Positions 14,607 through 59,768 of a DNA stretch of 64,000 nucleotides are shown here, in pieces. Origin of the DNA: a virus (lineage: Duplodnaviria; Heunggongvirae; Uroviricota; Caudoviricetes); IMG/VR virus record IMGVR_UViG_2832576359_000003, positions 26,348 through 90,347 of that record; one strand, given 5' to 3'. The number at the start of each line of letters is the position of its first letter. Position 1 is the first letter of the stretch. The notes beneath the pieces were generated by a model. The model was not told the origin of the DNA and searched no databases. It saw nothing but the letters and a program-made list of their open reading frames with translations. The position numbers were made by a program, and so were the translations under genes.

Positions 14607-16460
14607 CTACGCCGCGTTGCGATACGAGTTCGAATTCGCGATCTGGTCGCTAATGGCCGGGAACAGTTCGGCGATCTGGTCGACGTCGGCGAGTTCGCCC
14701 TCATGCACCCACTCGCACGCGATCTGCTCGGGCATTCCAAGCGCGGGTTGCTTGAGGGTGGCGAAGAGGAGGGCCGTGTTGATGGCGCCATCGTTCGCTC
14801 GCTTCGCGAGCCAGAGGAGGAGGGCGACGCGCGACTTCGCGTCGAGCACATCGACGCGGTCCAGGATCAAAATCCCGAGGCCCGAAATCGATGCGATCGC
14901 TTCGGCGAGCATCGCGTCGATGCGCCACTTCTCCGACTCACAAAGCAGGCTATAAGCACGACTGTCGCCGGTGATGGTCATGTCCGTATGGATCGTCGCC
15001 TGCGGCCAGTTCGTGTCCATCGCGGATTTGCGAAGGGCGCTATTGATTGGCCTAAGCGCTTTCGCGAGCAGCTGCGCGGGCACGCCTTCGGGTCCGAGCT
15101 GCTCGGCGAGCTTCCCCCACTCGAGCACAGCGGTGTGATGCTTGGCGGCGCGCGTGGACTTGTCGTCTGCCTCGTCTGCCTTCGTCTTTTGCTGTTGAAG
15201 GGTGATGTAGTTCTCGTCTGCCTCGCGATACTCGGCGAGATGAAGCTCGAGCGATTCCTGCGCAACGTTGATGTCGGCTTGCGTGACCTGTTCGCTGCTC
15301 GACGGTTGCGCTGCTTTCTCGCGGGCGATCTCGGCGGAGCGCAACGAACGCTCGGTGTTCGTTTGAGCGTTGGTCGCCATCTCGAGTGCCTTGGTGAACT
15401 CCGCGAGCTTCGCGCGCGCCTCGTCGTCGCCTGTGCTGCTCGGCAAGCCGTACTTGTCGACGTACCGATCGAAGGACGGCTGTAGCTGCGCGCAGATTTC
15501 GACGAGACTTTCCGTCTTCGTTCCTTCGAGGGCATCCAGGGCATATTCGATGCCGCGCGCCAGGTCGTGTTCGAGCCCGACTCGCGGCCCGCTTCCGGCC
15601 TTTGCCTTGAGCGCGTCGACCTGCTGTTGAACCTCGGCGAGCGTCTGGCGATCGGCCATCAGTTGCGAGAAAAGCCGCGGCACTTTTTCGCCCAACTCGC
15701 GGGCCGCGGCGCGTTCTCGGGTTTCGGACTCGTACGCTTCGGCCTTAGCCTTAAGGCTGCCGATGATTTCCTGCGTCGTGTGCACTTGCTTCTCGCATGC
15801 ATCACGCTTCGCCTCGGCCTGCGCGATCGCTTCGGCATCGACTTCGGGCTTCTCGGCCTGCCAACCTTCAGCCTTCTTCGAGCCGTACGTTTCGCCCGTG
15901 ACTTCGCGCCATGCGCCGCGCGCTTCGGTCACCTTGACCGTCGCGAACTTCGCGGCCGCGGGAAAGCCCGTGATCGACTTGAGCAGGGGCAGCGTTTCCT
16001 CGACGAAGACGGCGTCGCACTTGGCCTCGAGCAGCATCGTGCGCAGCCGGTCCTCGGTGACGCCGCAATCGGTGAGGGAAAACAGGAAAGTGCGCCGCTC
16101 GTCGTCGGTCAAGCGCGCGAAGCCCTGCGCGTTGAGAACGTAGGGGAGCGCCTCGGGAAGCCCGAGCGACAGGTCTCCGGTCATGGCGTTCGTGCCGGCC
16201 GGGAGCGAAAACGACGCTTCTCCGATGTCCGTAGCGACGCTCACAGTCCCTGCCTTAGCTCCCTCTGTGACCAGAGTCGGATAGAACTTCTTCAGGTTCA
16301 CGCGCAACGTCTCGCCCGTGAAGGCCATGCGCACGGCTTCCTGGATTGATGACTTCGCGGCGCCGTTGAATCCCGCGAATAAGGTGATAGGGCGCGCCGG
16401 AGCGATATCGATGCGGCGCGCGCCGAGGATGTTGCGAATGCTGATGCTGGTGATTTTCAC
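14607..16460 (-). CDS. SbcC/Rad50/RecF-like AAA ATPase
   Basis: N-terminal Walker A (FAGFNGAAKSS), long coiled-coil middle, C-terminal ILILDRVDVLD Walker B/D-loop-like block. Between ssb and recT. Confidence 0.65.
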   Translation of the reverse strand: MKITSISIRNILGARRIDIAPARPITLFAGFNGAAKSSIQEAVRMAFTGETLRVNLKKFYPTLVTEGAKAGTVSVATDIGEASFSLPAGTNAMTGDLSLGLPEALPYVLNAQGFARLTDDERRTFLFSLTDCGVTEDRLRTMLLEAKCDAVFVEETLPLLKSITGFPAAAKFATVKVTEARGAWREVTGETYGSKKAEGWQAEKPEVDAEAIAQAEAKRDACEKQVHTTQEIIGSLKAKAEAYESETRERAAARELGEKVPRLFSQLMADRQTLAEVQQQVDALKAKAGSGPRVGLEHDLARGIEYALDALEGTKTESLVEICAQLQPSFDRYVDKYGLPSSTGDDEARAKLAEFTKALEMATNAQTNTERSLRSAEIAREKAAQPSSSEQVTQADINVAQESLELHLAEYREADENYITLQQQKTKADEADDKSTRAAKHHTAVLEWGKLAEQLGPEGVPAQLLAKALRPINSALRKSAMDTNWPQATIHTDMTITGDSRAYSLLCESEKWRIDAMLAEAIASISGLGILILDRVDVLDAKSRVALLLWLAKRANDGAINTALLFATLKQPALGMPEQIACEWVHEGELADVDQIAELFPAISDQIANSNSYRNAA

Positions 16461-25028: not shown

Positions 25029-25103
25029 CGCGGGCTTGGCCGATCGGTTAGGCGCCAGCTTCCCAAGCTGGTAATAGGCGAGTTCGATTCTCGCAGCCCG
25101 CTC
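25029..25103 (+). tRNA. tRNA-Gly (anticodon CCC), slightly noncanonical D-stem and 6-nt variable loop
   Basis: Acceptor GCGGGCT/AGCCCGC, anticodon arm CCAGC-TTCCCAA-GCTGG, T-arm GCGAG-TTCGATT-CTCGC, 3' TCCA. Confidence 0.6.
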
Positions 25104-25258
25104 CAGTATTAGTGCTTCCCGCTCGGTTGGATCGAGTGCTTGGCCCCCGGTCGGGACTCAGGGGTGCCCCTCAAGCGCCGAGGAATCGAAGAGGCCATGA
25201 CCGGCCGCTAGCAGCGCCTCGAAATAATCGTCCGCTGGCCCCGTAGGGCCAACGATTT

Positions 25259-25335
25259 GGCAGGGTGGGGAAGTTGGTCATCCCGATGGGCTCATAACCC
25301 GTAGATCGCTGGTTCGAGTCCAGCCCCTGCAACCA
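25259..25335 (+). tRNA. tRNA-Met-like (anticodon CAT) with G1-A72 mismatch
   Basis: Anticodon arm ATGGG-CTCATAA-CCCGT, T-arm GCTGG-TTCGAGT-CCAGC, encoded ACCA end. First acceptor pair mismatched. Confidence 0.5.
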
Positions 25336-25523
25336 AACTGATGGGTGGCGCAACCTCCCTGAACCGGTGACCTAAAAGTTAGGGAACTGCGCGGAGCAAC
25401 GACGGTTGCGAGTGTTCAGAAATACGGGTGTAACAGTGGTTGCTCGGGGCCGGTGACGTACACCGGCGCTGTACCCGATATGCGCATGCGATGTGTGTGC
25501 ATATCAGGTGCAGTAAGCGGTAT

Positions 25524-25600
25524 GTCGCGTTGGACTTCTGGTTGAGGTCAGCATCCTTTCAAGGTGCGTAGGTCGGGTTCGAATCCCACACGCGACACCA
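25524..25600 (+). tRNA. tRNA-like gene (possible anticodon TTC), imperfect T-stem
   Basis: 7-bp acceptor GTCGCGT/ACGCGAC with encoded ACCA. Hairpin GCATC-CTTTCAA-GGTGC. GGGTTCGAATCCC T-loop with a mismatched stem. Confidence 0.35.
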
Positions 25601-25604
25601 GTTT

Positions 25605-25683
25605 CGCTGGGTAGCTCAAGCGGTAGAGCGTTCTCTCTCCAGAGAGGGGAAGGTTGGTGGTTCAAGTCCATCCCTGGCGGCCA
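25605..25683 (+). tRNA. tRNA-like gene, anticodon arm irregular
   Basis: Canonical D-arm TAGCTCAAGCGGTAGAGC and T-arm GGTGG-TTCAAGT-CCATC. Acceptor has two G-U pairs. There are 3-4 extra nt around the anticodon arm, so the anticodon is ambiguous. Confidence 0.35.
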
Positions 25684-26119: not shown

Positions 26120-26556
26120 GCTAGGGCGACAAGGGGCCTCGCGCCCTGACAGCAGAGTCTGCCGAGAACGTCGCGCGCGCGGCGCCGAGGCGAACGTCGA
26201 TGGTGTGGCCGCATCGGTAGGCGGGATCCGGGCTCTGCTGTGAGGGTGGAAGGTACGGCGGCTTCAAAAATGTGACCTCCGGTGTGCGGGTTCGAGTCCC
26301 GATCGCTGGCCGAGACTGAAGTTGGTAGACGCAGACGAAATAGCCATGTGCGAAACGTCGGAGCACGGCTGGTGTGCAGTTGGAACGCACACCCGAGGTC
26401 ACCCTCATCGAACTGCGCTTGCATCGCAGTCCACCAGTTGGCAGCGTCGGGAGACGCCCCCCGTCAGCACGAGTGCTGCGGTCTGTGTCTGATCCTATCG
26501 GGTCCATACCGCAGTAGTTTTGCATTGGTCTCCTACGGCTTCCCCGGTCGAAGGAT

Positions 26557-35233: not shown

Positions 35234-36094
35234 CTACTTCGTAGCGCCGACCTGGATCATCGGGATCGCGTTGCCCATCATGTAGGTCGGGTAGTGGCCG
35301 TCCCACTTCTCGATCTTCATCTTCTCGATCAACGACGGGTTCGCCGCGAGCGACTGGCCGAGGATGTCGTTGGCCTTCGCGGTGTTTTGCGCGACCTGCA
35401 GCGCGGCTTCGCTCTCGACGACGCGCTTTTGCGCTTCCCACTTCGTTTGCGCGATCTCGTTCTCGACGCGAAGGGCGTTTTGCTGCGCGGTGATCTTTGC
35501 CTCGATCGCGTCGTTGAACTGCTTGCTGAATTGGAAGTCGACGATGTTCACCGCGCTGACGTTGACGCCGATGTTCTTGAAGCGATTCAGCAGGGCCTCG
35601 CGCACTTCCTGGCTGACCTGATCGCGGCGCTGAATCAGATCGGTTGCCTCGTAGCGCGCTGCGACTGCTTTGACGGTGTCGTGCACAGCGGGATCCATGA
35701 TCGTCGGCCACGGGTCGCTGCCAAGATTGGCGTAAATCGCCGCCGCGGCGGCCGGCAGAATGTTGAAGTTGACCGCGACCTTCATGTCGACCTGCTGGAG
35801 ATCCTTCGACGAGCCGGCGACATCCGATTCGGACTTGTGAACGCCGACATAGACGGTGTGCATCGTCTGCGAGATCGGCATGCGGAAATGGATGCCAGGC
35901 GCGTATGTTTTTTCAGACGGCGCGCCGAATGTGGTCATCACTCCCACGTAGCCGGCCGGAACAGTCGCGACGGGCATGAGGGCCCAAAGTGCGCCCAGGG
36001 CGACCACTGATAAAACGCAAATGATGGCGAGACGAAGCTGGCTCATGCTGCTCGTGCTGGATTCGTCGCGGTTAGGTTGGTTGGTCGATACCAT
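35234..36094 (-). CDS. SPFH / band-7 (prohibitin/HflC-like) membrane protein
   Basis: N-terminal TM then the SPFH core (GYVGVMTTFGAPSEKTYAPGIHFRMPISQTMHTV...VNFNI) and a coiled-coil tail. Confidence 0.65.
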   Translation of the reverse strand: MVSTNQPNRDESSTSSMSQLRLAIICVLSVVALGALWALMPVATVPAGYVGVMTTFGAPSEKTYAPGIHFRMPISQTMHTVYVGVHKSESDVAGSSKDLQQVDMKVAVNFNILPAAAAAIYANLGSDPWPTIMDPAVHDTVKAVAARYEATDLIQRRDQVSQEVREALLNRFKNIGVNVSAVNIVDFQFSKQFNDAIEAKITAQQNALRVENEIAQTKWEAQKRVVESEAALQVAQNTAKANDILGQSLAANPSLIEKMKIEKWDGHYPTYMMGNAIPMIQVGATK

Positions 36095-36154: not shown

Positions 36155-38125
36155 TTAAGCGGCCGCGGCAGCACGCAACTCGTGCGCGAAATTAGCGCGG
36201 ATGATTGCGGCGGCGACCGGCGGGCAGACGCTGTTGCCGATCATGCGGACCTGAGCCGACTTGGAAAGGCGCTTGCCGTTGTGCTCGGGGTCGAGCACGT
36301 ACGAATCGGGGAAGCCCTGGGCACGCGCGAGCTCGCGCGGCGTGAGCATGCGCATGCCGATATCGACGATGGCGTAGTCCTCGCCGTGGATCGTCACGAG
36401 ACCGAGCCGGTCTTTCGTCGGGATCGTGTGCATCGGGTCGCGCAGATCCTGATGCTGGCCGCCTTCGCTGTAGTACTTGATCAGGAAGGCGCGCACCTCG
36501 GCGTGATGCAGTCCACCGGCGCTTACCGTGTGGAGCGGCTCGGCGACCGGTTGCGCGCCGCCGTTGTTGCGCAGCTTCACGAGGTGCGACACGGCGATCG
36601 CCGAATCGGCCTTCGCGGTGATTGTGGCAGCGGGCTCGCTCGCGTCGCGCGGCCGAGACTGACCAGCGCGGCCGCCACAGCCGACGATCTGAGCGGTGAC
36701 GAGCGCGTGGTGATCCTGCGTCGTGACCGTGCTCATCGGGTATGCGAGGTCCGCGCCGGGCGTTTCATTACCGCCGTAGTGCTTCGCGAGGAAGGCGGAC
36801 ACGAGGGCGTGCTTCGCGCCGCCCGCGACGACGGTGCCGAGTGGCTTGTCGATACCCGGCGCGCGCGGCGCCTGCCCGGCGCGCTCGCCGTATCCCGTCT
36901 GAATCAGCGTTGCGGCGACGATCTGCTGCTGGCCGCCGCTCGCAGTGATCGTGCTCAGCGGCGCTTTTGCGGATCGACCGGCCTTAACGCCCACGCGTTC
37001 CTTGTTGTGCTGCGCGAGGAATGCAGTAACGAGCGCTTGCTCGCTGCGGTTCGCGCCCGTGACGGTCGCGAGCGGTGCGTCGGCGCGCGCGCCGCGGTCT
37101 GAGCCCTGGTGCGTGACGTGCATCAAGGTCGGCGCGACCATCGCAAGGCTTCCACCGCGCGGATACGCGGTGATCGTGCGCAATGGTTCGCTCCCGCTGT
37201 GGACCGTGTCGCGGCCGTTGTAGTGCGCAATCGGAACGATGAAAGGGTCGGCGCTGTTCACGACGAACTTCATGATGCCGCGCGCGATACGCCGCAGCGT
37301 CGCATCCTTGAGCGGGCGATCGCGCTCGAAGATCGAGGGGCACGGGATCGACCAGTCGATGCATTCGGCCGCGGTGCGGTACGGCGCGAGCGCGCCGCGC
37401 GCGACGGCGTCCGAGTTCGGCGCGCCGTGCGTGGGCGCGGGCCAAACGATCGGAAGCCCATCGCGGCGCGCGAACAGATAGAGGCGCTTGCGAATCGTCG
37501 GCGTGCCGAAGTCGCACGCGCGCAGCACGCGCCATTCGACCTTGTATCCGAGCCCCGCGTAGAGTCGCTCCATCGGGAAGTCGGCGCCGAGCGTCTCGAA
37601 GATCTCGGGCACGTCCGGGTGCTCAGGCGACAGGCCGGACGAGAGCGCATCGACGAACGCGCGGAACGTGCGGCCTTTCTCGGCCTTGATCGGTTGGCCG
37701 TGCTCGTCGACCGGGCCCCAATCCTGGAACTCCTCGACGTTTTCGAGCGCGAGGCAGCGCGGCACCTGGAAGGTCCCCCACTTCAGGGCGATCCAGGCCA
37801 GCCCGCGGATCTTCTGGTCGCGCGGCTTGCCGCCCTTCGCCTTCGAGTGATGCTTGCAATCGGGGCTGAACCAGGCAAGCCCGATCGGCATCTGGTTCGT
37901 GATGAAGCCCGGGTGCACCGCAAAGACGTCTTCGCGATAGTGCCGCGTCGTCGGGTGGTTGGCCGCGTGCATCGCGAGCGCTTCGCCGTCGTGGTTGATG
38001 GCGATATCGACCGGGCGCCCGAAGGCCATCTCAATGCCCGTGCTCGCGCCGCCGCCGCCGGCGAAGTTATCCACGATGAGTTCGTGCCCCAAGTCGAGCT
38101 CGAAACTGATCTCGTCGCGCTTCAT
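36155..38125 (-). CDS. DNA cytosine-5 methyltransferase with 8 tandem ~35-aa repeats in the variable region
   Basis: Motif I DNFAGGGG, PC-like SPDCKHHS, ENV(EEF) motif, C-terminal MIGNSVCPPVAAAI. Repeat unit PLxTITAxG..HALVTAFLAKHYG occurs 8 times between roughly aa 300 and 580. Confidence 0.7.
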   Translation of the reverse strand: MKRDEISFELDLGHELIVDNFAGGGGASTGIEMAFGRPVDIAINHDGEALAMHAANHPTTRHYREDVFAVHPGFITNQMPIGLAWFSPDCKHHSKAKGGKPRDQKIRGLAWIALKWGTFQVPRCLALENVEEFQDWGPVDEHGQPIKAEKGRTFRAFVDALSSGLSPEHPDVPEIFETLGADFPMERLYAGLGYKVEWRVLRACDFGTPTIRKRLYLFARRDGLPIVWPAPTHGAPNSDAVARGALAPYRTAAECIDWSIPCPSIFERDRPLKDATLRRIARGIMKFVVNSADPFIVPIAHYNGRDTVHSGSEPLRTITAYPRGGSLAMVAPTLMHVTHQGSDRGARADAPLATVTGANRSEQALVTAFLAQHNKERVGVKAGRSAKAPLSTITASGGQQQIVAATLIQTGYGERAGQAPRAPGIDKPLGTVVAGGAKHALVSAFLAKHYGGNETPGADLAYPMSTVTTQDHHALVTAQIVGCGGRAGQSRPRDASEPAATITAKADSAIAVSHLVKLRNNGGAQPVAEPLHTVSAGGLHHAEVRAFLIKYYSEGGQHQDLRDPMHTIPTKDRLGLVTIHGEDYAIVDIGMRMLTPRELARAQGFPDSYVLDPEHNGKRLSKSAQVRMIGNSVCPPVAAAIIRANFAHELRAAAAA

Positions 38126-42027: not shown

Positions 42028-43278
42028 GTGACGACCCTCCACCTGGGTGACTGCCTCGCGGTGCTCGCCGGCATGCCCGACGCCTCGTTCGATTCGATCG
42101 TCACCGATCCGCCGTACCACCTGACGAACAACGGGGGCGGCCCCGCGCGCGGCTCGGACAACGCGTACACGCGTGCGCGCGCCGGCGCCTCGTCGCGTGG
42201 CTTCATGGGCCTCGAATGGGACGGCGGTGATATCGCCTTCCGCCCGGACGTGTGGCGCGAGTGCTTGCGCGTGCTCAAGCCCGGTGGTCATCTGCTCGCG
42301 TTCTCGGCCGCGCGCACGTACCACCGGATGGCCTGCGCGATCGAGGACGCGGGCTTCGAGGTCCGCGACCAGGTCATGTGGATCTATTCGTCCGGCTTTC
42401 CAAAGTCGAAAAACCTCGACGGCGAGTGGGAGGGGTGGGGCACTGCGCTCAAGCCCGCGCACGAGCCGTTGTGCCTGGCGCGCCGGCCACTCGAGGGGAC
42501 GGTGGCCGAGAACGTCGCGCGCTATGGCGTTGGTGCTCTGAATATCGACGGTTGCCGTGTCGCGTCCGACGAGCTGGTCGCTCGCATCGAGCACGCCGAC
42601 ACCGGCGCGCAGCGTGGCTACGGCGGCGGCATACGCGGGGGCACGCGCCGATCGGCTGGCACCGATGGCCGCTGGCCCGCCAACGTCATGCACGACGGCT
42701 CCGACGCCGTTCTGGCCGCGTTCCCGTCGGCGCCCGGTCAGCAGGGGCGTGCCGTCAACGATGGGGCTGCCGCGTCGAACAGCGTCTACGGCGCGATGCG
42801 CAACGTTACGGCCGCGCCGGCGCCGCGCGTTGAAGTGGACACGTCCGCCGCGCGCTTCTTCTATTGCGCGAAGGCGTCGCGCGCGGACCGCAACGCGGGC
42901 TTGCCGTCAGGCGACGTGCCGGCGGTGTCGCAGGACTCGACGATGCGCGCTTGCGAGACAGCCGATTGGGCCGCGCGCAATGGCAACCATCACCCGACCG
43001 TCAAGCCGACATCGCTGATGCAGGAGCTTTGCCGCTTGGTCACGCCACCCGGTGGCCACGTCCTGGACCCGTTCATGGGTTCGGGATCGACTGGCCGTGG
43101 CGCCGTGCTCGAGGGGTTCGAGTTCAGCGGCATCGAGCTTTCCGCCGCATACCACGCGATCGCGCGCGCCCGGATCGACGACGCCGCGCGGGCTCGCGCA
43201 GAGCTTGTCCGCGCCGCCGCTGATGAATCCCGCGCGCGCTCGCAACTGGATCTCTTTGAGGTGCCCGATGTCGTGTGA
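42028..43278 (+). CDS. DNA methyltransferase, N6-adenine/N4-cytosine family (beta class)
   Basis: DPPY motif near the N-terminus (IVTDPPYHL) and FxGSG near the C-terminus (DPFMGSGSTG). Confidence 0.75.
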   Translation: MTTLHLGDCLAVLAGMPDASFDSIVTDPPYHLTNNGGGPARGSDNAYTRARAGASSRGFMGLEWDGGDIAFRPDVWRECLRVLKPGGHLLAFSAARTYHRMACAIEDAGFEVRDQVMWIYSSGFPKSKNLDGEWEGWGTALKPAHEPLCLARRPLEGTVAENVARYGVGALNIDGCRVASDELVARIEHADTGAQRGYGGGIRGGTRRSAGTDGRWPANVMHDGSDAVLAAFPSAPGQQGRAVNDGAAASNSVYGAMRNVTAAPAPRVEVDTSAARFFYCAKASRADRNAGLPSGDVPAVSQDSTMRACETADWAARNGNHHPTVKPTSLMQELCRLVTPPGGHVLDPFMGSGSTGRGAVLEGFEFSGIELSAAYHAIARARIDDAARARAELVRAAADESRARSQLDLFEVPDVV

Positions 43279-44640: not shown

Positions 44641-44964
44641 GTGAGAAAGGTTTTCAAGTACGAGGTCGCGCGACGCGGCCAAGAGCCTACGGTGCTCCGT
44701 CTTCCGGGGTCTGCAACGCTATCGCGCGTCGACGTGCAAGACGGCCGCTTCATGGTCTGGGGGGGCGTCCCGACCGGTTTGCCGGCTGACACCGAATTCG
44801 AGGTGTTCGTGGTCGGCACTGGCGATCCGATCCCCGACGACGTCTTCGTGTTGAACACGTTCTTCGAAGGGCCTTTGGTGTGGCACGCGTGCGTACGCAT
44901 CCTCGCCGTCCCGTCGCACCTTCACGTCGGAAAGACGCACAGCGGGGTGACGCATGGTTGCTGA
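44641..44964 (+). CDS. Hypothetical protein (107 aa, GTG start)
   Basis: GTG preceded by a GAGAGGG RBS-like sequence. The N-terminal extension of the long ORF is rejected. Confidence 0.35.
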   Translation: MRKVFKYEVARRGQEPTVLRLPGSATLSRVDVQDGRFMVWGGVPTGLPADTEFEVFVVGTGDPIPDDVFVLNTFFEGPLVWHACVRILAVPSHLHVGKTHSGVTHGC

Positions 44965-46363
44965 CCAACACGGCTTTACGTTGCGTTCGATCAGCGACCT
45001 GCTTCCGTACGCGCGGAACTCCCGCACGCATAGCGACGACCAGGTCGCGCAGCTCGCCGCGTCGATCGATGAGTTCGGGCTGGTCGGCGCGATCGTCGTG
45101 CGCGACGGCACGATCGCGAAGGGGCACGGCACGCTCGCCGCGGTGCGAAAGCTGATCGAGGCGGGGAAGGGCATCTATCCGCCGCCGGGCCGCTCGCAGG
45201 GCGCTGATGCCTATCCAAATGGCCTTGTGCCGGCGATCGATGCGTCGGGTTGGTCTGATGCGCAGTTCCGCGCGTACGTCATCGCGGACAACAAGCTCGC
45301 GCTGAACGCCGGGTGGGATCTGGACATGCTCCGGATCGAACTCGAGGAGTTGCAGACCGAAGGCTTCGATCTCTCGCTGACGGGCTTCGAGCTCGACGAG
45401 ATCAAAGACCTTCTCACGCCCGAGCAGCTCGACCCGAACGGCAAGGACCCCGATGCCATTCCAGATGTGCCGCCCGATCCGCATTCGGTGCTCGGGGATG
45501 TGTGGATCCTGGGCGCGCACCGGGTGATGTGCGGCGACTCCACGATGCTGGATTCGTGGGACACGCTGATGGCCGGCGAGATGGCCGATATCGTCTGGAC
45601 CGATCCGCCGTACAACGTCGCTTACGAGGGCGTGGCCGGCAAGATCAAGAACGACGATATGGGCGACGAGCAGTTCGCGCAATTCCTGCTTGACGTCCAC
45701 ATCGCGCTGTTCTCGATCATGAAGCCCGGTGCCGCCATCTATGTCGCGCACGCGGATTCCGAGGGCTACAACTTCCGCAGGGCGTTCAAACAAGCGGGGC
45801 TCAAGCTGGCCGGCTGCCTGATCTGGCGCAAAGACCAGTTCGTCCTTGGCCGCTCGGACTATCAGTGGATGCACGAGCCAATCCTTTACGGCTGGAAGCA
45901 GGGCGCTGGGCACCGCTGGTTTGGCGGACGCAAGCAAACCACTGTGCTCGAGTATGGCGAGGGCTCTCCGTTCGAACAGCAGGCCGACGGTCGCTGGGTC
46001 GTGCGCGTGGGGAATCAGACGTTCGTCGTCGACGGCGCCGCGAAGGTTGAGCGCATGGAGTCGTCGCTCGTGTTCCACGAAAAGCCCGCGCGCTCGGCGC
46101 TGCATCCAACCACCAAGCCAGTCGGCCTGGTCGCGAAGTTCCTGCGCAACAGCGCGCGCCACAACGACATCGTCGTCGACGCGTTCGGCGGCTCCGGATC
46201 GACGCTGATCGCGTCTGAAGAAATGGGCATGTGCGCACGCCTGATGGAGCTTGACCCCAAGTTCGTCGACGTGATCTGCCAGCGCTACTACGCATTCACC
46301 GGCCGCGTGCCGGTCAACGCTCGCACAGGCGAGGAATTCCCCGTGAAGGAGAAGCAGCAGTGA
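44954..46363 (+). CDS. ParB-like nuclease domain fused to N6/N4 DNA methyltransferase
   Basis: N-terminal ParB/Srx-like block (LLPYARNSRTHSDDQVAQLAASIDEFGLVGAIVV). MTase motifs DPPY (VWTDPPYNV), HPTTKP and GGSGST. Confidence 0.75.
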   Translation: MVADQHGFTLRSISDLLPYARNSRTHSDDQVAQLAASIDEFGLVGAIVVRDGTIAKGHGTLAAVRKLIEAGKGIYPPPGRSQGADAYPNGLVPAIDASGWSDAQFRAYVIADNKLALNAGWDLDMLRIELEELQTEGFDLSLTGFELDEIKDLLTPEQLDPNGKDPDAIPDVPPDPHSVLGDVWILGAHRVMCGDSTMLDSWDTLMAGEMADIVWTDPPYNVAYEGVAGKIKNDDMGDEQFAQFLLDVHIALFSIMKPGAAIYVAHADSEGYNFRRAFKQAGLKLAGCLIWRKDQFVLGRSDYQWMHEPILYGWKQGAGHRWFGGRKQTTVLEYGEGSPFEQQADGRWVVRVGNQTFVVDGAAKVERMESSLVFHEKPARSALHPTTKPVGLVAKFLRNSARHNDIVVDAFGGSGSTLIASEEMGMCARLMELDPKFVDVICQRYYAFTGRVPVNARTGEEFPVKEKQQ

Positions 46364-57149: not shown

Positions 57150-59768
57150 GTGCAGTCTGTCGAGTGTGAGTTTCCTGAACTGTTCGAAGGGCAGGAACGC
57201 ATCGCGAGTAGCCTCGCGCGTTTCAATCTCGTGCACGGCGGCGAGCAGTGCGGCAAGAGCACGACGGCGATCGACGTCCTGCTGCTCTCGCAATTTGGCG
57301 CGCTCAACGGGTATCACGTCGCCTTCTGCGTGCCCGACGAGGCCGCTGTAACGGTCGCCAAGCGGCGCGTCTTCTCCCTCATTCACCACCTCGTCGACGG
57401 GCGTCCCGATCGGCCCCGCGTCGAACTAATCACGGGTGGCTCGATTCGCTTCGTGCGGCTCGATGACGAGCACCTTGAGCTTTGGGACCACCTCGCGCTG
57501 ATCGTCGTCGACGACGCGCAGCTCGTGCCGCGCATCGAGCCGCTCTGGTATGACGTGCTCGAACCTGCGCTCGGGCGCTCGCGCGGCTCGGCCTGGATCT
57601 TCGGAAAGCCCCGCGGCGCGCGCGACGGATTCGCGAGCCTCGCGCGGAACGCCGCCGGCGGCGTGCTATGGGCGGCATACCGCATGCCCACGGAAGAAAA
57701 CCCGTATTTCGACCGCGCGCGCCTCGAAGCGGACCGCGAGAAATTCACAGCAGACCAGTTCGCGCAGGAACGCGAGGGCGTCTTCGTCGACGTGCCGGTG
57801 GCGCTCACCGCGTCACAGTCGATCATCAAGCCTGGCGAGACGTTCCGCGAGTGGTGCATCCGGCTCGGCGAAGAAGGCCTCCACGTCGACGAAAAGCCAT
57901 TCACGCTCGACGATCGCCCGGCGATGCACTTCGTCTACGACCTGATCCCCTCGACCGCCGAAGAGGCGTTCCAGCGCATCGACGTGATCATGAAGTGCAC
58001 GCAGGTCGGGTTCACGGTGTTCGAAATGATGGCGATGCTGTATCTCGCGCTTCGCTTCGCGCCGGCGAAGATCGGCAGCTTCATGCCGTCGAAGGATCTC
58101 GCCGCCGGCAAGTCGTCGAATCGGTTCATGGGCATCGTGCGCACGATGCCGGCCGTGCACTCGATGATGACCGAGACGGCCGCCGAGCACGGCAAGTCCG
58201 GCGAGGGCAACGTCCTTACGCGGAACCTCGGCAACTCCATCTTCTATTTCCTCTGGACGTCCGGCAAGACCACGACCGAGTCGAACCCGATGGACGTGGT
58301 TTCGTTCGACGAAGTGCAGGAAATGAAGATCGCGGCGATGGAGAAAACCCGCGAGCGTATGTCGGCGTCGGCGATCCGCTACACGCTGATGGGATCCACC
58401 GCGAATTGGCCGGACGAGGATATCCACTGGTGGTTCAAGAAGGGCACGCAGTACCAATTTCACACGGACTGCCCCTCATGCCACACAGGGCAGGTTCTCG
58501 ACGATCACTTCCCCAAGTGCGTGGGCTTTGATCCCACGGCGCTGCGTTGGAACCCGCGCGAGGCCGAGGCGGGCATCGTGGGCGAGTACCGGTACCGCTG
58601 CCACGCGTGCGGCGGATGGATCGATGACCCGCAGATCGGCCGATGGATCGCGAAATTCCCAGAGGCTTCGATCCGCTCGCTCCACTTCCCACAGTTCCTG
58701 TCCCCGACGATCTCGCCGCGCGAAATGTACGAGGCGTATCGCGACGCCAAGGACATGAAGAACTTCTACAACCGGAAGCTCGGAAAGCCGTACGTCGATC
58801 CCACACAGGTTCCGGTCAACCTCGAGATGCTCGCCGCGTGCGCGGCGCTCGGGATGAAGCTCGGCGTCGTGTGGGAGGAGCGGGGCCGCGACACGTACAT
58901 GGGCATCGACCAGATGGGGCAATTTAACGCGGTCTTGATCGCGAAGCGGCTGCCGACTGGTCACATGGCGATTATCCACGCTGAGGAAGTCTACGACGCA
59001 GACCCGTTCGCGCGCTGCTCGGTGCTGCTCGAGCGCTATGGCGTGCGCGTTTGCGTCGTCGAAACGCTGCCGAACTACAACGACGCGAAGCGCTTCGCCA
59101 ACCGCCACCCGGGCATCGTGTTCCTCGCCGGCTACGGCAACATGGAAAGCGACATGCTGCGGTGGGGCGACGATCGGGCGAACCGCTCGGAGCGCCGCAC
59201 GGACGACGAGGACCGCGACCAGTACACGGTCACGCTCGACCAATACAAGTCGATGCAGGTTGCCTTCGCGCGGATCTCGAAGCTGGTTTGCGTGTTTCCT
59301 GATCCGAAGGCCCTTATCCAGGAGCTGACCGACGACGGGGACAACGGCAAGGGCGAGCGATCGTTGCGCCCGATCCTCGAGGAGCGCGTGTTTAAGCACT
59401 TCACGCGCACGGCGCTGATCGCCGAGCGCGACGAGGAGGAAAAGAAATTCCGGCGCCGCGTGGTCAAGGTCGGTATCGACCCTCACTTCTCGTACGCGTT
59501 CATGCTGCTCAACGTCGCATGGGCTCGCGCGCACGGTACGGCGTCGTTTCTATTCCCTGACGAGGCGGAGGAGGTTGAAGTGCCCCAAGGAAGCATTGCG
59601 ATCGCGCAGACGCGCGTTCTGGCGGATATCAAGCGGGAGACTGAGGAGGCGGGGGCAGAGAAGTGCGCCGGCTGCGCATCGTTCGACGAGGAGCGGGGGT
59701 GGTGCGAGGAGCGCGAGGTGCTGGTGAGGCCGAGCAGCCCCGCGTGCATCTTGTTTATGGATCGGTAG
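57150..59768 (+). CDS. Terminase large subunit (GpA family) with ~250-aa N-terminal extension carrying a second P-loop
   Basis: GpA-like Walker A KCTQVGFT near aa 283 and a Zn ribbon (CPSCHTGQ...CHACGG). Additional N-terminal Walker A GGEQCGKST and Walker B LIVVDDAQ. No stop codon over 872 aa. GTG start. Confidence 0.6.
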   Translation: MQSVECEFPELFEGQERIASSLARFNLVHGGEQCGKSTTAIDVLLLSQFGALNGYHVAFCVPDEAAVTVAKRRVFSLIHHLVDGRPDRPRVELITGGSIRFVRLDDEHLELWDHLALIVVDDAQLVPRIEPLWYDVLEPALGRSRGSAWIFGKPRGARDGFASLARNAAGGVLWAAYRMPTEENPYFDRARLEADREKFTADQFAQEREGVFVDVPVALTASQSIIKPGETFREWCIRLGEEGLHVDEKPFTLDDRPAMHFVYDLIPSTAEEAFQRIDVIMKCTQVGFTVFEMMAMLYLALRFAPAKIGSFMPSKDLAAGKSSNRFMGIVRTMPAVHSMMTETAAEHGKSGEGNVLTRNLGNSIFYFLWTSGKTTTESNPMDVVSFDEVQEMKIAAMEKTRERMSASAIRYTLMGSTANWPDEDIHWWFKKGTQYQFHTDCPSCHTGQVLDDHFPKCVGFDPTALRWNPREAEAGIVGEYRYRCHACGGWIDDPQIGRWIAKFPEASIRSLHFPQFLSPTISPREMYEAYRDAKDMKNFYNRKLGKPYVDPTQVPVNLEMLAACAALGMKLGVVWEERGRDTYMGIDQMGQFNAVLIAKRLPTGHMAIIHAEEVYDADPFARCSVLLERYGVRVCVVETLPNYNDAKRFANRHPGIVFLAGYGNMESDMLRWGDDRANRSERRTDDEDRDQYTVTLDQYKSMQVAFARISKLVCVFPDPKALIQELTDDGDNGKGERSLRPILEERVFKHFTRTALIAERDEEEKKFRRRVVKVGIDPHFSYAFMLLNVAWARAHGTASFLFPDEAEEVEVPQGSIAIAQTRVLADIKRETEEAGAEKCAGCASFDEERGWCEEREVLVRPSSPACILFMDR

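Follow-up and report, generated by a model that had tools for sequence, protein, structure and literature searches.

A putative orphan phage cytosine-5 methyltransferase with eight tandem modules, in a family whose arrays change by whole cassettes

Introduction

It is an old question how cytosine-5 DNA methyltransferases (C5-MTases) encode specificity in their recognition domains, and how a single catalytic domain can be paired with different ones. The question is raised again by a gene at positions 36155 to 38125, minus strand, of a 64,000-nucleotide stretch of DNA from a virus of the Caudoviricetes (IMG/VR record IMGVR_UViG_2832576359_000003, positions 26,348 to 90,347; the whole stretch is called the window here). 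The gene encodes a member of the C5-MTase family with eight consecutive repeat units in its variable region. Does each unit read a short sequence of its own, or do the eight together form one recognition domain? Tandem target-recognition domains (TRDs) give the methyltransferases (MTases) of Bacillus phages their multiple targets (PMC8936443), and an original prediction, made from the DNA alone, had likened the array to those of SPR and phi3T. Here we report that the array is conserved, that it evolves by gain and loss of whole modules, and that its modules have the layout of the Bacillus enzymes. We consider it somewhat probable that the protein is a multispecific-type orphan phage C5-MTase, in which one catalytic domain would be combined with alternative cassettes held in an array shaped by unequal recombination, and which would serve in protection against restriction.

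An array of eight modules in a C5-MTase

The protein of 656 amino acids (aa) is 100% identical to an NCBI entry, 'DNA cytosine methyltransferase [Pararobbsia silviterrae]'. Its predicted assignment to the cytosine-5 enzymes holds up well: Pfam PF00145 matches in three stretches (the best includes residues 585-644) with 83 bits against a gathering cut-off of 22 (E 3.6e-23), and phrog_116, 'DNA methyltransferase', matches with E 1.7e-101, while the TIGR00675 match from NCBIfam scores under that model's own cut-off. By family the protein is a C5 cytosine DNA methyltransferase, and methyl transfer to C5 is assumed. The parts of the gene are listed below; conservation was read from two alignments of relatives, with 61 and 121 sequences.

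36155..38125, minus strand: complete coding sequence of the putative C5-MTase, 656 aa plus stop codon, ATG start (open reading frame list)
37463..38083, minus strand: catalytic domain, motifs I-VIII, residues 15-221 (from the predicted local distance difference test, pLDDT, of AlphaFold2, AF2; Foldseek; and invariant columns of both alignments)
37844..37867, minus strand: motif IV, S-P-D-C-K-H-H-S, with the putative catalytic Cys90 (translation; alignment with 3g7u)
37190..37462, minus strand: non-repeated, conserved N-terminal part of the variable region, residues 222-312, including a helix at 274-289
37079..37189, minus strand: module A, residues 313-349, EPLRTITAYPRGGSLAMVAPTLMHVTHQGSDRGARAD, of type 'PTLMHxTHQGxDR'
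36965..37078, minus strand: module B, residues 350-387, APLATVTGANRSEQALVTAFLAQHNKERVGVKAGRSAK
36848..36964, minus strand: module C, residues 388-426, APLSTITASGGQQQIVAATLIQTGYGERAGQAPRAPGID, of type 'ATLIQTGYGERxGQxPRxPGLD'
36743..36847, minus strand: module D, residues 427-461, KPLGTVVAGGAKHALVSAFLAKHYGGNETPGADLA (translation), modelled strand 443-449
36638..36742, minus strand: module E, residues 462-496, YPMSTVTTQDHHALVTAQIVGCGGRAGQSRPRDAS, modelled strand 472-482
36542..36637, minus strand: module F, residues 497-528, EPAATITAKADSAIAVSHLVKLRNNGGAQPVA, modelled strand 508-517
36440..36541, minus strand: module G, residues 529-562, EPLHTVSAGGLHHAEVRAFLIKYYSEGGQHQDLR, present in most relatives, modelled strand 541-547
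36359..36439, minus strand: module H, residues 563-589, DPMHTIPTKDRLGLVTIHGEDYAIVDI (translation), the last module, abutting motif IX
36158..36358, minus strand: motifs IX and X with the C-terminal helices, residues 590-656, RMLTPRELARAQGFPD ... GNSVCPPV (Pfam; PDB matches 3g7u, DNMT1 and M.HhaI; pLDDT 87-98)

All eight strings quoted in the original prediction are present, at residues 313, 350, 388, 427, 462, 497, 529 and 563, and they recur with a period of 32-39 aa. The array lies inside the variable region, as had been proposed, but between motifs VIII and IX rather than just before motif X. It follows the non-repeated segment of residues 222-312, in which nine positions are invariant among the 121 relatives (I256, S264, I265, F266, L272, T276, R279, G283 and P294). 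Each module consists of P-x-x-T-[IV], a short loop, a hydrophobic strand and a Gly-rich loop, and the unit alignment shows P2, T5 and the hydrophobic strand to be common to all eight. The single consensus given earlier, HALVTAFLAKHYG, is a close fit for unit D (HALVSAFLAKHYG) only. Pairwise local scores between units average 32.5, compared with 18.1 +/- 0.7 for shuffled units (200 shuffles, maximum 20.4). Neither Tandem Repeats Finder nor a direct-repeat search found a tandem repeat in the DNA of the array, and the top DNA matches between units are 70-80% identical over no more than 46 nucleotides, indicating that the duplications are ancient. Pfam and NCBIfam hold no model for the repeat unit; a match to DUF5946 (E 0.13) was discarded as noise.

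Modules are conserved by type and change as whole cassettes

A hidden Markov model (HMM) of the unit detected 5-10 units in every one of the 120 closest homologues, which are 50-74% identical to the query and come from Burkholderia, Paraburkholderia and Herbaspirillum; conservation of the repeats at the protein level, one of the two points on which the earlier proposal turned, is found in homologues. In the query, every one of the eight units represents a different orthologous type, the order of the types is kept, and the commonest architectures among close homologues are ACDEFGH, CDEFGH and ABCDEFGH, some with additional inserted units. Across these homologues each type retains its own signature, including the loops that might be taken for linkers: ATLIQTGYGERxGQAPRVPGLD for C, VTAQLVGCGGRAGQSRPRDA for E and EVRAFLIKYYG for G. 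Searched on its own against 1.84 billion cluster representatives, the repeat region matched 2,736 clusters at E <= 1e-3 and 382 at E <= 1e-30.

In a wider set of 268 relatives, 1,697 of the 1,789 units fall into about 13 recurrent module types, defined as Louvain communities in which types B and D are incompletely separated. (Single-linkage clustering was rejected, as it merged all units into one cluster; the units form a continuum with hybrids.) The 198 full-length relatives display 136 architectures of 3-10 modules, with a mode of 7 and a conserved order. Their C-terminal F-G-H run is near-constant (F then G in 143, G then H in 144) and their N-terminal end is variable. Eight modules occur in 40 of the 198, as well as in gp10 of Pseudomonas phage F116, and nine or ten in 20. 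The original prediction had called eight repeats unusual, which does not stand for the family; since eight modules are common there, the word is valid solely in comparison with characterised enzymes.

Compared with the query, insertions and deletions come in steps of one module (35-40 aa, and 73 aa; insertions 29-44 aa). Deletions of 36-40 aa span module B, which is missing from the commonest architecture of close homologues, and in 10 of 60 homologues a deletion of 35 aa, one module length, crosses the junction of E and F (residues 475-512). Proteins that are 99-100% identical over their first 280 residues differ by one cassette. For example, P0048 (662 aa) and P0049 (618 aa) are identical at 600 of 618 positions outside a single 44-aa cassette gap, and the pairs P0007/P0040 and P0107/P0120 show the same one-cassette difference, with breakpoints inside the conserved hydrophobic strand. 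The position of the breakpoints points to in-frame unequal recombination and defines a natural exchange unit that runs from strand through Gly-rich loop, P-x-x-T-[IV] and second loop to the next strand. The array evolves by gain and loss of whole modules and behaves, as had been suggested, as an expandable one: length changes come by the module, and alleles with 99-100% identical catalytic domains differ by a cassette.

The modules resemble those of multispecific Bacillus phage enzymes

The likeness to SPR and phi3T that had been proposed was borne out in layout. According to their original records, M.SPRI, M.Phi3TI, M.H2I and M.Rho11sI, the enzymes of SPR, phi3T, H2 and rho11s, contain 3, 2, 4 and 4 modules, respectively, with the pattern ...VY-x-S-x-G-[LIV]-[SA]-[PTS]-T-[LI]-T-[TS]-loop or EPAFTVNTIDRHG, and in a MAFFT alignment the four differ by whole-module gaps. 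BLASTP identity between the query and these enzymes is 21-29%, in short local alignments confined to conserved regions (E 1e-4 and 2e-4). One of them (E 1e-4) covers the N-terminal, conserved part of the variable region and joins query residues 191-288 to phi3T 166-252. Another joins query residues 541-643 (modules G and H and motifs IX-X) to phi3T 326-425 and places DPMHTIPTKDRLGLV opposite EPAFTVNTIDRHGVA. The first unit HMM gave no significant match to phi3T, and a longer, strand-to-strand profile was needed. This profile, of 46 positions, can be aligned over its full length with the last module in each of the four enzymes; the scores, 3.7-7.7 bits, are weak but above the maximum of 2.7 bits reached by 1,200 shuffled sequences. 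Judged by these alignments, module H apparently corresponds to the final module in SPR and phi3T.

The comparison extends to an enzyme with a single recognition unit. HMMER aligns the first module of phi3T to residues 229-257 of M.HhaI (GKGGQGERIYSTRGIAITLSAYGGG), the segment that holds the two recognition loops and Thr250-Leu251 (TL) in the M.HhaI-DNA structure. Through this alignment, each query module carries, in order, the elements of a minimal C5-MTase recognition unit, and P-x-x-T-[IV] is the likely counterpart of the 'TL' motif of C5-MTase recognition domains.

Because the query has the same elements in the same order as M.SPRI, M.Phi3TI, M.H2I and M.Rho11sI, its mechanism is most likely theirs. 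A single catalytic domain would work with different modules by turns, each of them specific for one short sequence, and several targets would result; some modules may be inactive 'pseudo-domains'. The array would grow, shrink and swap modules by in-frame unequal recombination inside the conserved strand. By methylating the phage's own DNA, the enzyme would leave host restriction enzymes unable to cut it. We infer that more than one module would be an active recognition domain and that the biological role would be anti-restriction.

In the Bacillus enzymes, SPR reportedly methylates GGCC, CCGG and CCWGG, phi3T GGCC and GCNGC, and H2 GGCC, GCNGC and GDGCHC, and inactive pseudo-domains are reported in rho11s and SPR; on these reports, an enzyme has as many TL modules as targets, or slightly more. 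A bolder form of the multispecific reading is possible, and we offer it tentatively: the family may be a natural cassette system in which each of some 13 or more module types determines a single short target sequence. Its arrays of 3-10 modules would be re-assorted over very short evolutionary times by unequal recombination in the conserved strand, and these enzymes would then be the most multispecific DNA methyltransferases known. For scale, SPR and H2 have three targets and M.(phi)BssHII has five.

The catalytic domain and structure predictions

The catalytic motifs are readily recognised. Motif I is FAGGGG, within D19-N-F-A-G-G-G-G26, of which F21, A22, G23 and G26 are invariant in the 121 relatives. 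The ENV of motif VI (E128, N129 and V130) is invariant in the 61-sequence alignment. In the larger alignment, motif VIII, TIRKR (about residues 205-221), has an invariant R214 and an R212 conserved in at least 90% of sequences, and motif X, GNSV, has invariant G630, N631 and V633; motif IX begins at residue 592 and includes RMLTPRE. Motif IV is S-P-D-C, with Asp-Cys replacing the Pro-Cys that is canonical in C5-MTases. This variant is family-wide (F116, Dolphis and a record labelled phi105 share it), with P88 invariant and D89 and C90 kept in at least 90% of the 121 relatives. The P-P-C of 3g7u aligns to P-D-C, so that Cys90 stands opposite the catalytic Cys of that protein.

Two features of homologues touch this domain. 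A 366-aa intein (Pfam Intein_splicing/Hint_2) is present in P0026, P0072 and P0073 (1078-1116 aa) directly before the catalytic cysteine of motif IV (...WFSPD / CFPAGT...VVHN / CKH..., slashes marking its ends), a position equivalent to 37856-37858 of the window, the Cys90 codon; the active-site Cys of the methylase is thus the +1 extein residue. Inteins typically insert at functionally essential sites. Within residues 162-192 (37550-37639, minus strand), a 28-aa segment, about SGLSPEHPDVPEIFETLGADFPMERLYA, is missing from 13 of 60 close homologues and is an optional insertion between motifs VI and VIII.

Foldseek against the PDB matched the catalytic domain to 3g7u, DNMT1, M.HaeIII and M.HhaI and nothing beyond it. 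The C-terminal 217 residues matched PDB sequences at motifs IX-X only, and the PDB search matches include no structure of a multispecific enzyme. In AF2 models, pLDDT is mostly 88-98 over residues 21-250, except for the loop 91-110, and about 77-84 up to residue 290; with the 61 close homologues as input, residues 274-590 all fall below 50.

Weighing the multispecific reading against its alternatives

Several observations weigh against multispecificity. Methylation data for any family member were not found in the literature searched. The sequence likeness to SPR and phi3T modules is weak, and unit profiles of 28 and 46 positions had no meaningful match among PDB sequences, including M.HhaI and M.HaeIII. 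The shortest relatives retain three modules, and G and H, which occur in most relatives, could be structural. With Asp-Cys in place of the canonical Pro-Cys, ordinary catalytic activity is assumed from sequence. Finally, AF2 run with the 121 more diverse sequences gives modules A-C a pLDDT below 50 and D-H one of 50-65; a single integrated domain would not fit independent modules, and an array modelled with such low confidence favours neither.

The alternative that survives best, though we think it rather unlikely, is that the enzyme has a single specificity. The eight hairpin-like units would then make up one composite, beta-rich DNA-binding domain. Only the module or modules beside motif IX (G and H) would recognise the target; the rest would contribute structure, non-specific DNA affinity or processivity, or would be dead pseudo-domains. 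The hydrophobic segments of D-H, modelled as beta-strands with the 121 sequences, would be compatible with one sheet. The presence of G-H in most relatives and the retention of three units in the shortest fit this proposal as well, as does the PADLOC model DrmMII, a standard-length model of 322 positions whose best stretch on the methylase is residues 546-646, only the G/H junction and motifs IX-X. Pseudo-domains, as reported for rho11s and SPR, would suit it too, and the four modules each of rho11s and H2 are consistent with such domains. However, every non-terminal module type keeps its own, strongly conserved loop sequence, and modules are gained, lost and exchanged between otherwise identical alleles, which is hard to fit to one interlocked fold. 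Additional inert modules would also bring the phage little gain.

It is improbable that the enzyme is instead a relaxed or near non-specific cytosine methylase, in which the modules jointly tolerate most contexts (for example any GC or CG) and methylation is dense. Type-specific conserved loops suggest defined contacts, and the sequence carries no sign of lost specificity. Adenine orphan phage MTases with very short or no specificity do exist (PMC3299994), and the two other MTase genes alongside this one suggest a broad anti-restriction strategy.

Very improbable is the proposal that the repeat region is a flexible, largely disordered spacer that reads no sequence, or the protein an inactive relic: the low AF2 confidence over residues 299-590 and the non-canonical Asp-Cys of motif IV would suit it, but invariant and near-invariant residues are spread throughout modules C-H (61-121 relatives), the array and an intact reading frame persist across about 2,700 clusters (50% identity), conservation of the Asp-Cys variant extends through the family, and some homologues carry an intein precisely at the catalytic Cys. 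A TALE-like alternative, in which all modules together read a single long site, was judged unlikely, as rare long sites would be of little anti-restriction use, and no evidence was found for the DNA-wrapping scaffold that the original prediction had offered as a second option.

If several modules are active, one small prophage gene would protect phage DNA from many restriction systems together. Such broad protection would help explain the spread of the family in temperate phages of Burkholderiales, Pseudomonas, enterobacteria, Vibrio, rhizobia and others. The family would also amount to a library in which short recognition modules can be exchanged on a single catalytic scaffold, in which natural one-cassette allele pairs act as built-in controls and from which a module-to-sequence code could be read directly. 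If only one motif is methylated, the protein would be an orphan phage methylase of the ordinary kind whose recognition domain is unusually repetitive.

Genomic context

The methylase gene sits in a phage-like element, and its flanking genes belong to PHROG families of unknown function. Other genes of the window are as follows:

42028-43278, plus strand: N6_N4_Mtase, phrog_67, a further orphan methylase gene
44954-46363, plus strand: ParB-like N-terminal domain fused to N6_N4_Mtase, phrog_498, a further orphan methylase gene
57150-59768, plus strand: large terminase subunit gene, phrog_675, E 8.9e-90
14607-16460, minus strand: SbcC-like protein gene

Three methylase genes thus lie within 10 kb of the same element, and the large terminase and SbcC-like genes support a large prophage or phage-plasmid across much of the window. 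Searches of the neighbours with PADLOC, Pfam and PHROGs found no restriction or defence partner beside the methylase and no nuclease family; as the neighbours match no defence model or nuclease, the methylase is an orphan. Assignment to a restriction-modification system, or as a DISARM or Druantia methylase, was rejected because no partner gene is adjacent. Elsewhere, the gene for P0007, a homologue from B. cenocepacia, is part of the early region of a prophage, with ERF/YqaJ recombination genes on one side and the integrase on the other, and F116 gp10 is flanked by two adenine MTase genes, giving adenine, cytosine and adenine enzymes in a row.

Two further features of the window were recorded. 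An SPFH/Band_7 (prohibitin-like) gene lies directly downstream of the methylase (35234-36094, minus strand; Pfam E 4.5e-34, phrog_200). Four tRNA genes occupy 650 bp at 25030-25683, plus strand (Gly-ccc, Met-cat, Glu-ttc and Trp-cca), and adjoin phage-like genes; the cluster may represent phage-encoded tRNAs or mark an integration region.

Comparison with known systems

There is nothing exceptional about the methylase within its family, phrog_116 or 'DNA cytosine methyltransferase', which is very large, already annotated and found in temperate phages of Proteobacteria. The array is present in 120 phage records, from Pseudomonas, Vibrio, Gordonia, Aeromonas, Rhizobium, Burkholderia, Klebsiella, Escherichia, Myxococcus (Mx4), Pectobacterium (ZF40) and others. 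Burkholderia phage BgManors32 encodes a protein of the same family that is 67% identical over 99% of its length and has eight modules, and F116 gp10 (687 aa) has eight modules and the same S-P-D-C motif. Members of phrog_116 differ from the query merely in the set and order of module types, with no difference in kind. Shorter relatives have four modules in Pseudomonas phage Dolphis and three in the record labelled phi105. The latter member is unannotated (KY197768.1, 28948-30864) and 44% identical to the query; the record, of 39.2 kb, is titled 'Bacillus phage phi105 ... CwlH gene' and has a single annotated feature. In the literature searched we found neither a description of the repeat architecture nor a characterised family member, and the family-wide architecture, with 3-10 homologous TRD-type cassettes of about 13 types and one-cassette allelic differences, looks undescribed in the searchable literature.

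Among proteins of solved structure, the best match is 3g7u, the C5-MTase of prophage CP-933R of E. coli O157 (sequence E 8.8e-13, fold E 5.5e-11). It is prophage-encoded too, but differs in its length of 376 aa, its canonical P-P-C and its lack of a repeat array, and it aligns just at motifs I-VIII and IX-X. M.HhaI and M.HaeIII, whose structures were solved with DNA, share the catalytic fold of the query; they are monospecific, with one recognition unit compared with eight. The single unit of M.HhaI consists of a Gly-rich loop, TL and a second loop, the same order of elements as in the query modules.

The closest parallel lies with the SPbeta-group enzymes M.SPRI, M.Phi3TI, M.H2I and M.Rho11sI. 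Both they and the query are phage-borne orphan C5-MTases. Both have a two-part variable region between motifs VIII and IX, in which a conserved N-terminal segment is followed by tandem modules, an organisation reportedly described for multispecific phage enzymes. In both, a module comprises a loop, x-P/S-x-T-[LIV] and a second loop, the modules are mutually homologous, and relatives vary by entire modules. The two groups differ in number and detail: 2-4 modules with a period of about 41-47 aa and P-C in motif IV in the SPbeta group, compared with eight modules (up to ten in relatives), a period of 32-39 aa and D-C in the query. The multiple targets of the SPbeta-group enzymes have been demonstrated by experiment, whereas the query family is known here from sequence. 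The Bacillus phage enzymes and the phrog_116 family both join a single C5-MTase catalytic domain to a row of homologous modules that comes and goes by whole units.

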